Virus record (IMG/VR): IMGVR_UViG_3300046514_000338
Coordinates: 10,937-74,936 of that record
DNA: 64,000 nucleotides
Origin: a virus
Reading direction: 5' to 3' (one strand)
Positions 59,604 through 64,000 of the stretch are shown one piece after another. Position 1 is the first letter of the stretch; the number at the start of each line of letters is the position of its first letter. Below the pieces are notes generated by a model. The model saw nothing but the letters and a program-made list of their open reading frames with translations, was not told the origin of the DNA and did no database searches. A program made the position numbers and the translations under genes.

Positions 59604-60835
59604 GCTTGTTTAAGTTGATAAGTTCCGTTAATAAGTTTTACATCGCTTTCATAATAATAATCACCGTCTACCTTTATCGCTCTCCAAGCGACAATATGAC
59701 TACCGTAATGCTCAGAATATACACAGTCATCAATTAAATAGTAGCAACTATCATAATCAGAATATACAACTTCGTCGTTTAAATAATACGTTCCGTCAAT
59801 TTCTGTGATACCTGAATCACCCACCCAATAATTTCTACCATGTACGTCAACAACGTTATCTATGTGAGTCGTATCACCTCTCCTTTCTCCGCGGTCAACC
59901 TGTGTCGCATTATCTTCGTCAATGTACAATCCGGTTATATCATCATAGATACCGCTGTCATTTTCTTCCCTCTCGCCGTTAGTGTTTTCATATTCATAGA
60001 TACAGCCATCAATTTGTCGATTTGTAAGAAAGCCATCTCCGCCATAACGGAATGTATCTATATAAGGGTAAGAGTCAAAATCTGTAGGGGTGTTAATCAC
60101 AAATGTCTTATTCCTGTAGGTTCCCTCATGGTCTATAAATTCAGTCCGGTTGTCGTAAGTTTTGTAATATCGTTTATACCAATATTTTTGCTGTTTAGCA
60201 TAATCAACGAATTTCTCGTACATAAAATCTTCAGTAACGTAAATTCTATCCATTAATGTAACAGAATCAGCTACCTTCCAGATAAGGGAGCGGCCACATA
60301 ATAACCCCTCTTTATTGGTTAAGGTTAAAATAGACAGTTGTTTGCATTCAGCGTAAATTTTGAATCTCCCGCTGTAGTCATTCATGCAGCTACCATTTAA
60401 ACTGGCATCTCCCTTCGCGCGGTCCATTTGATAAACCGCAGGAATAGCTTTGCAGGGTAGCAAAGTAAAGCGATAACCTTCGTCGATAAAATGTGATTTG
60501 TAAAAGTTAGTGAAACATTCAAAATCCGCGTCCTTCAAAAGTTTTTGCGCTCTTGGTGTAAACAATTTGCGGATAATTTTACCAGCTTTGCCGTTTTGCC
60601 GTCCTTCCCGGCTCCATTCTCCGTTATCGGAAATTAAATGAGGTTTACCTGCCGGTAAATAGCTGATAGTGCCATCAGACCTGAATGTGAGATAATTTAC
60701 CTCGTCTGTAGTTAACAGTAAGTCGTAAACGTTCCATTGGTGCAAATAAGCATGATACAATAGGCGTTGAACGGTTCCCTGAGAAGTTTGGAGGAAGTCT
60801 AAGAATGACTTGGAGTAGAAAATTTGCGTTTTCAT
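59600..60835 (-). CDS. Conserved phage protein with SCM/DRIY/PY.DT motifs and acidic Tyr-rich C-terminal repeats
   Basis: NGSCM, GR.LIW, MDRIY, YPYIDTF; coupled to the peptidase gene. Confidence 0.7.
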   Translation of the reverse strand: MKTQIFYSKSFLDFLQTSQGTVQRLLYHAYLHQWNVYDLLLTTDEVNYLTFRSDGTISYLPAGKPHLISDNGEWSREGRQNGKAGKIIRKLFTPRAQKLLKDADFECFTNFYKSHFIDEGYRFTLLPCKAIPAVYQMDRAKGDASLNGSCMNDYSGRFKIYAECKQLSILTLTNKEGLLCGRSLIWKVADSVTLMDRIYVTEDFMYEKFVDYAKQQKYWYKRYYKTYDNRTEFIDHEGTYRNKTFVINTPTDFDSYPYIDTFRYGGDGFLTNRQIDGCIYEYENTNGEREENDSGIYDDITGLYIDEDNATQVDRGERRGDTTHIDNVVDVHGRNYWVGDSGITEIDGTYYLNDEVVYSDYDSCYYLIDDCVYSEHYGSHIVAWRAIKVDGDYYYESDVKLINGTYQLKQA

Positions 60836-60888
60836 ACCTGACAGTTTTTGTTTTTTAAAAGTTTTGAAATTATTGACTTTGCTTTGCC

Positions 60889-61080
60889 TTAATTTGGCAC
60901 TACAAAATTTCGTTCAAAAAAAATAACTATTTTAAATTTTGCCTTGCCTCGTTTTATCTGATTATACACTGCTGATTCAACAATACTGTTGCTCGTTGCA
61001 TAATCTTTGACTAATACTGCATTTTTTGGTAGTTTGGTAACTACCGGATATTTCCCCTCATTTCGTTTCATTTTATTCAT
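60889..61080 (-). CDS. Small HTH-like DNA-binding protein
   Basis: VKDYA.......AVY.QIKRGK pattern. Confidence 0.5.
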   Translation of the reverse strand: MNKMKRNEGKYPVVTKLPKNAVLVKDYATSNSIVESAVYNQIKRGKAKFKIVIFFERNFVVPN

Positions 61081-61090
61081 GTTTATTTAT

Positions 61091-61121
61091 CAAATGTATG
61101 TTATAAGTTACAATTCACAAA
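61091..61121 (-). promoter_or_regulatory. Bacteroidota promoter overlapped by a TTACAATTCAC motif
   Basis: TTTG-19-TACATTTG. Confidence 0.6.
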
Positions 61122-61132
61122 ATTTATTTTAT

Positions 61133-61576
61133 TTATTTACCAATTCGGTTAAGCCACTGACTTATTTTTTTAAGGGTAGAATGGGACCGGCTATCATTTA
61201 ATTGTGGCTTACCATTCAATTTAATATACTCTGCTGCCTCTTTTAGAATATCGGTCAGTTCCTTATTAGCTTCTTTTAATGCTTCATTCTCTGCCTTTAG
61301 TTTGTCGTAGCCGTTCCAACATTCTACTATGCGGGCTGCTATCTTCTGCAATTCTCGCTGAGTATATTTAGTTTCTTCCTGCTGGGTTGCTTCTTTTTTA
61401 TTAAGTTCATCACACATTTTCTGAATTGTTTTTTTATTACCCCATTTAGTGCCGTAGTTGGGCGGCACATATCCCGCTTTATTGTCATAGACATAAAAAA
61501 CGCCATTCACGCCATAAGGCACATAGGTTTTACTTTCTTCCTGCATAGATTGAGGGGTATTAGTTTGCTGTTTCAT
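61133..61576 (-). CDS. Hypothetical protein
   Basis: A.RIV.C.N motif and coiled coil. Confidence 0.55.
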   Translation of the reverse strand: MKQQTNTPQSMQEESKTYVPYGVNGVFYVYDNKAGYVPPNYGTKWGNKKTIQKMCDELNKKEATQQEETKYTQRELQKIAARIVECWNGYDKLKAENEALKEANKELTDILKEAAEYIKLNGKPQLNDSRSHSTLKKISQWLNRIGK

Positions 61577-61595
61577 GTTGTTTTGTTTAAAGTTT

Positions 61596-61617
61596 AAAAA
61601 TAGGGGCATTTCACCCC
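61596..61617 (-). terminator. Hairpin / possible terminator
   Basis: GGGGTG-AAA-TGCCCC followed by TATTTTT. Confidence 0.5.
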
Positions 61618-61630
61618 GTTAGTTCTGTCG

Positions 61631-61879
61631 TTACTTACTCCTGTAATAGTCCTTAACCATTGCATTGAGTTCTTTTTTTATCTCCCTTGCTTTATCTCCC
61701 TTCCATGTTTGCGCATTTGCTAAAAAATAACTGACTATTGTACTTGCCGGGTCAGCTATGTACATTGAGTTAATATCGCTCAATGTTTGCATTGCATCAA
61801 GATAGGGGACTGCACCAAAATATGGCTTTTTCCAGTCCTGCTTAATGTCGTTTGCAATAACGTTCAATTGCCTTGTCAT
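61631..61879 (-). CDS. Conserved phage early protein of unknown function
   Basis: DW.KPYFGAVPYL.AM...YFL.NA..W.G..AR.IK.EL. Confidence 0.7.
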   Translation of the reverse strand: MTRQLNVIANDIKQDWKKPYFGAVPYLDAMQTLSDINSMYIADPASTIVSYFLANAQTWKGDKAREIKKELNAMVKDYYRSK

Positions 61880-61969
61880 TTGTTTATAGTTTTGAAGTTA
61901 AAAAATTGAAATCAGACACAATGTAACAAGTTAATTACAATTCACCAAATAATGTTTGTTAAGAAAGTG

Positions 61970-62197
61970 TTAACTGTGCTCCAATTCGTTGTTAACCGGG
62001 TTAAAAAATCTGATACTTTGTCCCATTACTTTACCCGTCCTTAAGTCTTTTATTGGTGCAATAATTTTGTACCTGCCGTCATGCTGTTTATAAACTTTAA
62101 AATCTGCCACTCTTTGTCCAAAAAATTTCATTGTTTTAGGAACAAAGAAATAGGGCGCTGTTTCCTGCGTTAGTCTTTTAATGTCATAGATAGTCAT
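61970..62197 (-). CDS. Conserved phage early protein of unknown function
   Basis: YFF...TMKFFGQ motif. Confidence 0.65.
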   Translation of the reverse strand: MTIYDIKRLTQETAPYFFVPKTMKFFGQRVADFKVYKQHDGRYKIIAPIKDLRTGKVMGQSIRFFNPVNNELEHS

Positions 62198-62228
62198 AAA
62201 ATTATAGTTTTAAGTTATTAATTTGTTT

Positions 62229-62280
62229 GGTTAATACAGGATATTAAAATATCCCGTTTCGCTTTGCTCATCAGTTAACC
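62229..62280 (-). ncRNA. Type I hammerhead ribozyme HH1 (minimal stem II)
   Basis: GGUUAA CUGAUGA GC-AAA-GC GAAA CGGGAUAU-UUUA-AUAUCCUG UA^ UUAACC; predicted cut at 62235/62234. Confidence 0.8.
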
Positions 62281-62577
62281 TTAATAATATTTCCTGCAAA
62301 ACTCTTTACCACCTGTTACATATTTGCCTTGTTCAGGATATTCCGGTTTACCAGCGCCTTCCCATTGTTTACAGCCATCTTTTAACCAATGGATATATTG
62401 AAATCCGCGATAATTCCCAGACTGATGTAAAACATATTCAATCGAATGACACAAGGCTTCACAAACCGCATTATATTTGTCAGGAAAATTTATTATTTCA
62501 TGGCTATTATATGCCGATTCAAGTCTAGCGTTAATTTCGTCTTTAAATTTTTTGACGTTAAATGTTTTAGTTGCCAT
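62281..62577 (-). CDS. Conserved phage early protein (between HH2 and HH1)
   Basis: IE.VLH.SGNY.GF.Y motif. Confidence 0.7.
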   Translation of the reverse strand: MATKTFNVKKFKDEINARLESAYNSHEIINFPDKYNAVCEALCHSIEYVLHQSGNYRGFQYIHWLKDGCKQWEGAGKPEYPEQGKYVTGGKEFCRKYY

Positions 62578-62591
62578 AATTTGTATTTTTT

Positions 62592-62651
62592 GGTTAATAC
62601 CTGTCTATAAATATAGACGGGTTTCGAGTAGTTAACTCTCATCAGTTAACC
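62592..62651 (-). ncRNA. Type I hammerhead ribozyme HH2
   Basis: GGUUAA CUGAUGA GAGU-UAACU-ACUC GAAA CCCGUCUAU-AUUU-AUAGACAGG UA^ UUAACC; predicted cut at 62598/62597. Confidence 0.9.
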
Positions 62652-62661
62652 TTTGTTATCA

Positions 62662-63018
62662 TTATAAAATACTTGTTTGGCTAAACTTTTTCGGTTGCAT
62701 CATTGAGCCTATCTCTTTATCTTCCCAGTTGCCGTTATTTACGTCAATCTTTTTGCCTAGTGAACGTACAAAGATTGTCGGCCTAATTGAAAACAAGGCA
62801 TCGAAAAATTCTCCGTGAACGTGCCAGCTAGCCTTAGGCAATCGCCTTCCGGAAAATGAATATCTTGCTCCCGGTTGCCCGCTCTTAGCCTGTAGCGTAA
62901 ATATTACGCGGCCTGCCGTCTTTTGTTCAATCCTGTTAAATGAGATATTGCCGGCGTATTTGGCATTAATAACTTTTAATGCTTGATTCAATTCGCTGAT
63001 AGTTGCATTAGTTGTCAT
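62662..63018 (-). CDS. Conserved phage early protein (between HH3 and HH2)
   Basis: GAR.S.SGRR...A.WH.HG.F..ALF motif. Confidence 0.7.
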   Translation of the reverse strand: MTTNATISELNQALKVINAKYAGNISFNRIEQKTAGRVIFTLQAKSGQPGARYSFSGRRLPKASWHVHGEFFDALFSIRPTIFVRSLGKKIDVNNGNWEDKEIGSMMQPKKFSQTSIL

Positions 63019-63034
63019 AATTTTTGTTTTTTTT

Positions 63035-63096
63035 GGTTAATACCTGCGGTTTATCATTTCGCAGGTTTCGGGCATTCAGCCGCTCTTCAGTTAACC
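63035..63096 (-). ncRNA. Type I hammerhead ribozyme HH3
   Basis: GGUUAA CUGAAGA G(C)GGC-UGAAU-GCCC GAAA CCUGCG-11 nt-CGCAGG UA^ UUAACC; predicted cut at 63041/63040. Confidence 0.88.
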
Positions 63097-63102
63097 TTTC
63101 TT

Positions 63103-63321
63103 TTAAATATTGCCTAGATATTGTTGATAGGCCGCTGATTCCTTCCAAAACGTTTCATAATCGTTGCCATATTGCGAAAGTGCTATTTTCATTATCTCCT
63201 CATCGCCTTCAAAAATTACCAAACTTTTTTCCCAAATTGGGGTCACGTTTAAACATTTCGGAACCGTGTTAAAAAATTTGATACTACGGGCATCTAAAGA
63301 AGAAAATTTAATCGTTGTCAT
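63103..63321 (-). CDS. Hypothetical protein
   Basis: 72 aa ORF with an AT-rich leader; ends 6 nt before HH3. Confidence 0.55.
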   Translation of the reverse strand: MTTIKFSSLDARSIKFFNTVPKCLNVTPIWEKSLVIFEGDEEIMKIALSQYGNDYETFWKESAAYQQYLGNI

Positions 63322-63356
63322 TTTGATAGTTTTTTAAAGTGAATGAATGAAGTTTG

Positions 63357-63382
63357 ATAAAAGAGGGGAAAGTTCCCCTCTT
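63357..63382 (-). terminator. Hairpin / terminator
   Basis: AAGAGGGGA-ACTT-TCCCCTCTT followed by TTAT. Confidence 0.6.
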
Positions 63383-63388
63383 CCGTTG

Positions 63389-63628
63389 TCATCTGTTAAC
63401 CCGTTTTGCAATCAGTTCTATCACTGGTGTGCAACCTATGCCGTGAATCATTGCGCCGAAACCGTTTAGAGCAATATTCACTAAGTGGAAATTAGCGTGA
63501 ATTTCTGACACGCAGACTCCCAGAGGCATGAAGACAAAAACACCAATTAAGACACGGTGCAAAATTGTGTGCTTACTTCCCAATAAATGAGAGCAAATCA
63601 CACGGGGCAAATCAAAGAATTTTTTCAT
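63389..63628 (-). CDS. Small membrane protein
   Basis: HL.G..H...HR..G...M..GV...G..IHGIG.TP; two TM helices. Confidence 0.6.
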   Translation of the reverse strand: MKKFFDLPRVICSHLLGSKHTILHRVLIGVFVFMPLGVCVSEIHANFHLVNIALNGFGAMIHGIGCTPVIELIAKRVNR

Positions 63629-63633
63629 AAGGA

Positions 63634-63786
63634 CTAAAATTTTTGGTTATCGTAAGGGGTTCTAATAACTACCAATAAAATTGGTACCATAGCAACAACG
63701 AGAGCCACAAGGCAGAACGTTGAAGGAAGGAAGAACGCCGAAGTGATAAGCAAAACTGTGATAAGATACAAGTCACAAGTACGCAT
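63634..63786 (-). CDS. Small hydrophobic protein
   Basis: 50 aa, two TM helices, first gene after a promoter. Confidence 0.4.
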   Translation of the reverse strand: MRTCDLYLITVLLITSAFFLPSTFCLVALVVAMVPILLVVIRTPYDNQKF

Positions 63787-63825
63787 ACAGTAAGATTTTA
63801 AAATGAATAAATAACGATAACAGGA

Positions 63826-63860
63826 CAAATGTAAGTTACAAGTCACAAGAAACAATCAAA
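63826..63860 (-). promoter_or_regulatory. Early promoter heading the hammerhead-containing operon
   Basis: TACATTTG -7 box at 63826-63833; TTACAAGTCAC motif in the spacer. Confidence 0.55.
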
Positions 63861-64000
63861 GGTTGCACAAACAACCGAAATGAAAACACCTAACTATGTG
63901 ATTCACATCTCACAAAACATGTATGAATTGTAAAAAAATCTTTGCCGGGTTCCAATGTTGTCGCAAAACACAACACACTAGGGCGCGGCCAATATCTCCC

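Follow-up and report, generated by a model that had tools for sequence, protein, structure and literature searches.

The ribozyme array and its genes

The DNA analysed here, called the window, comes from an uncultured soil phage and makes up the right-hand 64 kb of a viral record of 74.9 kb (IMG/VR) whose completeness is estimated at 64%. About 1-2 kb from the end of the record, the minus strand carries three hammerhead ribozyme motifs, named here HH-A, HH-B and HH-C, which separate four small open reading frames (Table 1). The three motifs share the layout GGUUAA-CUGANGA-stem II-GAAA-stem III-GUA/UUAACC, the slash marking the predicted cut. Direct reading of the sequence and regular-expression searches returned the same motifs, cut sites, excised units and ORFs as the original prediction had stated. 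The intergenic gaps at the HH-A, HH-B and HH-C sites measure 84, 84 and 83 nt (the leaders between cut and AUG are given in Table 1), and stem I of HH-C adjoins the stop codon of the ORF located upstream.

Table 1. Positions in the window of the ribozymes, of the predicted cleavage products and of the flanking ORFs, in the direction of transcription
Feature	Position	Strand	Remarks
72-aa ORF upstream of HH-A	63103..63321	(-)	First gene of the putatively punctuated block; stop codon 6 nt before stem I; no family
HH-A, type I hammerhead	63035..63096	(-)	Direct reading and regular expression; predicted cut after A63041
Unit 1, predicted 443-nt cleavage product	62598..63040	(-)	22-nt A-rich leader starting UUAACCAAAAAAAAC; 118-aa ORF (63018-62662); HH-B at 3' end, ending ...AGACAGGUA
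HH-B, type I hammerhead	62592..62651	(-)	Direct reading and regular expression; predicted cut after A62598
Unit 2, predicted 363-nt cleavage product	62235..62597	(-)	20-nt leader starting UUAACCAAAAAAUAC; 98-aa ORF (62577-62281); HH-C at 3' end, stem III end ...CCUGUA, ...AUAUCCUGUA
HH-C, minimal type I hammerhead	62229..62280	(-)	Direct reading and regular expression; predicted cut after A62235
75-aa ORF downstream of HH-C	61970..62197	(-)	37-nt leader; weak DUF7447 match; last gene with a predicted ribozyme-made 5' end

Searches of Pfam, PHROG and the Atlas gave no lead for the proteins encoded within the two units (118 and 98 aa). Viral contigs contain no relative of the 98-aa ORF, and no paralogy was detected among the local genes or between them and the genes of other units. 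Homologues were found for the 118-aa gene in two high-GC phages (L109 and L110), for the 75-aa gene in one (L346) and for a neighbouring 82-aa gene in 18. The original prediction had raised the possibility that ribozyme-bounded cassettes move between phages, in which case homologues of the enclosed genes might be flanked by ribozymes elsewhere. This was not observed: no ribozyme of the family described below or of Rfam lies beside the homologues at L109, L110 and L346 (0/3 loci) or beside those of the 82-aa gene (0/18 loci), and the ribozymes thus do not travel with the 118-aa, 75-aa and 82-aa genes.

The region 61900-63400 is represented in 24 sequencing runs, all of them soil or rhizosphere DNA metagenomes. 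With positions 61000-64000 as query, blastn found nothing similar in the phage collection, and no metagenome contig scanned contained GUA joined to either unit leader. Short contigs from two soil runs match the core of HH-B only (62618-62654) before running into unrelated flanks, and one of these contigs carries a GGTTAA stem I; such core-only matches indicate that the same soils harbour further phages with this type of ribozyme. A scan for σ70 promoters yielded sites no more frequent than in shuffled sequence, so that no transcript start was assigned. It should also be mentioned that GGTTAACAGATGA, found at 63389-63401 and 63366-63378 on the minus strand, differs by a single mismatch (U4 to A) from the block made of stem I and the 5' part of the core, and is followed by a terminator-like hairpin, not by the remainder of a ribozyme. 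The resemblance may be the remnant of a fourth hammerhead that once headed the operon, or may be due to chance.

Fold and family of the three hammerheads

All invariant positions of the hammerhead core (C3 U4 G5 A6 N7 G8 A9, G12 A13 A14, the A15.1-U16.1 pair and a nucleotide other than G at H17) are intact in the three copies, in which the first block reads CUGA(U/A)GA (CUGAAGA in HH-A). The GAAA block, the A-U pair closing stem III and the GUA triplet at the cut are likewise present in HH-A, HH-B and HH-C. Searching the 64-kb window with the core and spacing pattern returned exactly three matches, corresponding to these ribozymes, and the 13-nt block GGTTAACTGADGA occurs there in three exact copies, all within the array. 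Each copy has the three-helix architecture, with an open stem I of 6 bp and loop-capped stems II and III, stem III having 7-10 bp. In stem II of HH-A, a C is bulged out of the 4 bp, which are capped by a UGAAU loop; stem III of this copy has 7 bp. In HH-B, stem II (GAGU/ACUC, 4 bp) is closed by a UAACU loop and stem III contains one C-A mismatch. HH-A and HH-B thus both carry a 5-nt U-N-A-N-U loop on 4 bp, whereas HH-C carries GC-AAA-GC instead, a stem II of 2 bp devoid of that loop, together with a stem III of 10 bp.

Stem I is identical in the three ribozymes, as originally noticed, but it is not their sole identity outside the core. An unpaired A brackets stem I on each side in all three (A-GGUUAA ... 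UUAACC-A), and the common stretches extend to AA-GGUUAA ... UUAACC-AAA. The pairs G10.1-C11.1 and C15.2-G16.2 and the A at the cleavage site are common to them as well.

With regard to stability, HH-C reaches its minimum free energy in the hammerhead fold, which for HH-A lies at most 0.2 kcal/mol above the minimum. For HH-B, nearest-neighbour energies, which ignore tertiary contacts, put an alternative hairpin 1.4 kcal/mol below the hammerhead fold. In this 8-bp hairpin, the stem I arm and the adjoining CU pair with AGUUAACU of the ribozyme's own stem II and loop II; the modelled structure may represent an inactive conformer.

In viral contigs, a scan with a pattern restricted to the core and to two positions of loop II, with stem I left free, returned at least 119 stretches. 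Stem I consists of exactly six consecutive pairs in 145 of the 147 matches listed with a family-like stem II, and dozens of different sequences make up these pairs. The filter had not imposed this covariation of stem I. A gap-free alignment (A1) of 43 length-matched members contains double changes at all six pairs of stem I, three pairs of stem II and four pairs of stem III, a count that leans towards structure because pairing of stems II and III was required by the filter. Conserved in A1 are A3 (invariant), A56 (at least 90%), G4, C55 and the U-A-U positions of loop II. The subfamily is further characterized by a near-fixed outer G-C pair and A/U-rich inner pairs in stem I, a C-G second pair in stem III and a stem II of 4 bp capped by the U-N-A-N-U loop. 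A tertiary contact joining loop II to the end of stem I may be suspected from the fixed length of this stem, the bracketing A residues and the conservation of loop II.

A covariance model (R1), built from 43 other phage ribozymes and trained without the window copies, was run over the 64 kb with filters off. HH-B scored 49.5 bits (E = 1.5e-10), HH-A 46.9 bits (E = 7e-10) and HH-C 35.5 bits (E = 7e-7); nothing else in the window exceeded 12 bits, and the whole 74.9-kb record gave no further match. None of the three is matched by Rfam at gathering thresholds. Below threshold, only HH-B is matched, with 25 bits to RAGATH-1-hammerhead (RF03152), whose gathering score is 56.3. Canonical members of the subfamily (L111, L139, L068, L033 and L114) also fall below the Rfam 15 gathering score, with 26-29 bits at best, again to RAGATH-1-hammerhead. 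The failure therefore reflects the models and not the sequences, and standard annotation would miss the subfamily. Judged by their sequences, HH-A, HH-B and HH-C are genuine type I hammerheads, for which self-cleavage is predicted.

The three copies need not be equally active. One or more of them could be weak, inactive or conditional, the array setting graded ratios of joined to separated messages. HH-C, with its 2-bp stem II, has the lowest R1 score and lacks the conserved loop II, the competing fold of HH-B is the more stable one by the calculation given above, and stem II of HH-A is bulged. The invariant core positions are nevertheless intact in all three copies, the energies are those of nearest-neighbour calculations that leave out tertiary contacts, and 2-bp stems II are common in natural hammerheads, active ones included (Perreault et al. 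2011, PMC3088659). We consider such a graded array improbable.

The subfamily is widespread among phages. A restriction to Bacteroidota was considered and rejected, given that SD-like motifs are found in about half of the leaders and that matches in genome contigs come from varied phyla. Among the matches listed, an ORF starts within 120 nt of the cut for 139 of 153 subfamily ribozymes (median leader 26 nt) and the upstream ORF ends at or inside the ribozyme for 137 of 153. Part of the ribozyme therefore doubles as a stop codon. At loci L111-L225, the stop codons lying inside ribozymes are the core UGA of CUGA (36 cases), UAG over the conserved A-G (20) and UAA of stem I (17). Ten near-complete phage genomes contain 2-7 copies each, in one block of 0.4-5 kb and on a single strand, and neighbouring cuts in the subfamily delimit units with a median length of 490 nt. 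Of the 44 members flanked on either side by 3 kb or more of sequence, 21 have no neighbour within 3 kb.

Identity of stem I within genomes

Viral contigs contain the exact form GGUUAA ... GUA-UUAACC in at least 105 stretches, with stems II and III that are unrelated to one another. In an unbiased sample, GGUUAA outnumbers every other stem I (18 of the 147 matches listed, 12%). Being present across many contigs, this stem I is not private to the phage studied here. The idea that the palindrome GGUUAACC is significant in itself was rejected, since most other stem I types of the subfamily are not palindromic.

The original prediction had suggested checking whether co-resident hammerheads in related genomes co-vary in stem I, and the outcome of this test is positive. 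Sharing is well above chance: of 85 co-resident pairs, 24 (28%) have the same stem I, compared to 2.4% between genomes, a level reached in 0 of 2000 permutations. In adjacent pairs, the 3' strand of the upstream stem I is fully compatible with the 5' strand of the downstream one in 27 of 52 distinct cases, against 6% at random. Matching does not appear as a requirement, however, as at most four of the six positions are compatible in 13 of the 52 adjacent pairs. If anything, the same stem I in neighbours should slightly hinder folding of the downstream ribozyme, so that the enrichment of identical stems is not predicted by simple processing.

Relatedness of the ribozymes accounts for much of the signal. 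The greater resemblance within than between genomes is not limited to stem I (ratio 0.51) but extends to stem II (0.76) and stem III (0.61). For stems II and III together, the value is 0.37 in pairs with identical stem I and 0.50 in the others, the between-genome baseline being 0.67; pairs with identical stem I are thus the more similar ones. Since identity of stem I tracks similarity of stems II and III, much of the sharing reflects common descent, in line with the simpler alternative already offered in the original prediction, namely that identity only reflects duplication. A slow evolution of stem I fits the comparison of orthologous ribozymes in L048 and L155, in which stem I was kept while stems II and III changed by compensatory substitutions, the flanked gene being 80% identical. 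Unlike stem I sequences also coexist: these same conserved ribozymes form a mismatched pair, GGUUAA upstream and GGUCUA downstream (4/6 compatible), the protein they enclose being 80% identical between the two phages, and nine subfamily ribozymes in L075:2800-6450 (+) have seven different stem I sequences.

Descent does not cover the whole of the signal. Among 35 co-resident pairs in which stems II and III are no more alike than at random, 6 (from five genomes) nevertheless have the same stem I, compared to 2.7% between genomes, and the HH-A, HH-B and HH-C trio, with its dissimilar stems II and III, belongs to this class. Within-genome sharing of stem I can thus be ascribed mostly to descent, with a residue left over that slower evolution of stem I, compatibility at the RNA level or recombination at the DNA level could each explain.

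Recombination would operate on the shared blocks as short homologies for gene gain, loss or duplication, which is compatible with RNA processing. The blocks that could serve as cassette junctions are A-GGTTAA-CTGANGAG (16 nt) and GTA-TTAACC-AA (about 12 nt). With a stem I common to all copies, hybrids arising by crossover would still pair and work, so that phages exchanging genes would converge on one stem I. In the comparison of L095:397-950 with L151:8709-9290 (also L126), a mosaic ribozyme downstream of a gene common to these related arrays has stem II of its counterpart and stem III of the ribozyme upstream of that counterpart, an arrangement which suggests DNA-level crossovers inside ribozymes. 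In L075, three units encode paralogous proteins (27-37% identity), indicating that arrays can grow by duplication of a gene together with its ribozyme. The sporadic occurrence of the ribozymes, which the 18 phages with the 82-aa gene lack, and the presence of the GGUUAA type in many contigs with unrelated stems II and III point in the same direction. The homology tracts are however very short, mosaic ribozymes amount to few cases, and the DNA contigs of four soil or rhizosphere runs contain no joint removing a unit over 60500-64000: no unit-sized gap was bridged in them, and only loose ends deriving from the hammerheads of other organisms were seen. We regard a role of the blocks as cassette junctions as an unlikely side hypothesis.

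At the RNA level, the original prediction had proposed that a doubly cut unit closes on itself. The 5' UUAACC would pair with the unit's own 3' GGUUAA arm, and the ends would be sealed by the hammerhead acting in reverse or by a host RtcB-type ligase, yielding circular mRNAs resistant to exonucleases, or cross-ligated units. The geometric premise is correct, as each unit starts with UUAACC and ends with a ribozyme carrying the GGUUAA arm; the end complementarity is real, and own-end pairing of unit 2 is predicted with P of about 0.95. The frequent full compatibility of adjacent subfamily ribozymes and the residual identity of stem I described above would agree with such a reading, units of the subfamily have a median length within the size range of known ribozyme-made circles, and the presence of RtcB in a Bacteroides control genome makes a host enzyme conceivable.

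Function as circular mRNA nevertheless gained no support. For unit 1, own-end pairing is predicted with P of only 0.12-0.15, the stem I duplex is weak (-4.1 kcal/mol at 37 C), the ribozyme that would have to seal unit 2 is the minimal HH-C, and a sealed circle would cleave again. Minimal hammerheads strongly favour cleavage over ligation. RtcB is absent from all 50 virus records bearing arrays, including ten with a completeness of 90% or more, and the present record has no match to the RtcB or RNA_ligase families. Matching ends are dispensable, as judged from the 13 poorly compatible adjacent pairs, from the conserved GGUUAA/GGUCUA pair and from the seven stem I types of L075, and no doubly cut unit is possible for the solitary members, which make up 21 of the 44 well-flanked ones. 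In addition, circular or spliced products of clustered phage hammerheads have been considered and looked for, and were not detected (Perreault et al. 2011, PMC3088659). Self-closure is thus geometrically possible and unsupported as a function, and it seems improbable that these genes are expressed in this manner. A broader proposal is that each genome uses one stem I as an address, by which any fragment ending in a ribozyme with a 2',3'-cyclic phosphate could be rejoined to any fragment starting with UUAACC, giving circular or re-assorted bacterial mRNAs. We hold it to be very improbable; if true, it would be the natural counterpart of engineered circularisation by ribozymes plus RtcB.

Probable punctuation of the operon and relation to known systems

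The explanation that we favour, and consider probable though far from certain, is that HH-A, HH-B and HH-C serve as punctuation marks between the small genes of one operon, cutting a polycistronic RNA into single-gene mRNAs. In the minus-strand transcript, each ribozyme would fold during synthesis and cut itself after GUA. The resulting mRNAs would start with a 5'-hydroxyl UUAACC followed by an A-rich leader of 20-37 nt, and would end in the compact hairpins of a ribozyme bearing a 2',3'-cyclic phosphate. The stem I common to the three copies would be the modal form of the subfamily, retained by descent and by slow evolution under several constraints, i.e., the fixed length of 6 bp, the bracketing A residues, the overlap with the upstream stop codon and the use of part of it in the leader that follows. 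That each unit can pair its own ends would be a by-product.

The motifs belong to the subfamily and are placed tightly between stop and start codons. We infer that cleavage takes place in vivo and affects the fate of the mRNAs. The intact cores, helices and cleavage triplets, the R1 scores, the consistent stop-to-start placement and the occurrence of arrays in one block on one strand all argue for intercistronic punctuation. Against it stand the absence of the family loop II in HH-C and the competing hairpin and stem III mismatch of HH-B, by reason of which the activities may differ, as well as the part of stem I similarity that relatedness leaves unexplained (6/35 compared to 2.7%). Cleavage of clustered prophage hammerheads has been reported in vitro, with in vivo evidence for one of the clusters, and a role in processing was proposed for them (Perreault et al. 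2011, PMC3088659).

These prophage clusters are the closest known likeness, since there too co-oriented hammerheads lie between small and varied phage genes and processing of a long transcript was suggested. They differ in that types I, II and III are mixed, whereas the ribozymes of the window are all of type I, belong to one tight subfamily and have an identical 6-bp stem I. As far as we could find, sharing of stem I within genomes is not described in that study (Perreault et al. 2011, PMC3088659). RAGATH-1 hammerheads (RF03152), the sole Rfam model giving a match, are similar in being of type I, bacterial or phage-borne, with a short A/U-rich stem I; however, their 5' hairpin is absent here, their stem I has 5 bp, their stem II is different and the scores obtained are far below 56.3.

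In retrozymes and in viroid or satellite RNAs, a unit a few hundred nucleotides long is likewise delimited by two hammerheads with matching ends and is released with 5'-hydroxyl and 2',3'-cyclic phosphate ends (Cervera et al. 2016, PMC4918200). There, the repeated unit is non-coding and has the same ribozyme on either side, and the circles have been demonstrated (PMC4918200). By contrast, the units of the window contain unique protein-coding genes of a DNA phage, are delimited by ribozymes with different stems II and III, and have no repeat or reverse-transcription context. The type-SGC hammerheads HRIMA-1 (NAR 2023, PMC10085705) offer a parallel of another kind, although their permutation and context are different: their stem I was unexpectedly found to be perfectly conserved, and covariation came to light in a wider search. 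The authors explained the conservation either by closeness in evolution or by tertiary structure (PMC10085705), and both explanations apply to the ribozymes of the window too.

According to a 2019 review (PMC6765202), the role of the thousands of hammerheads present in phage genomes has yet to be settled. The layout with single genes separated by ribozymes has been known since 2011, and on present evidence the window is an ordinary instance of it. It contributes a clean three-ribozyme example, to which the comparison adds a sharply defined subfamily missed by the Rfam models, the placement of a stop codon inside the ribozyme and a measurable sharing of stem I within genomes. If the residue of this sharing were to stem from RNA rejoining or from recombination at ribozyme boundaries, phage hammerheads would gain a role beyond cutting.
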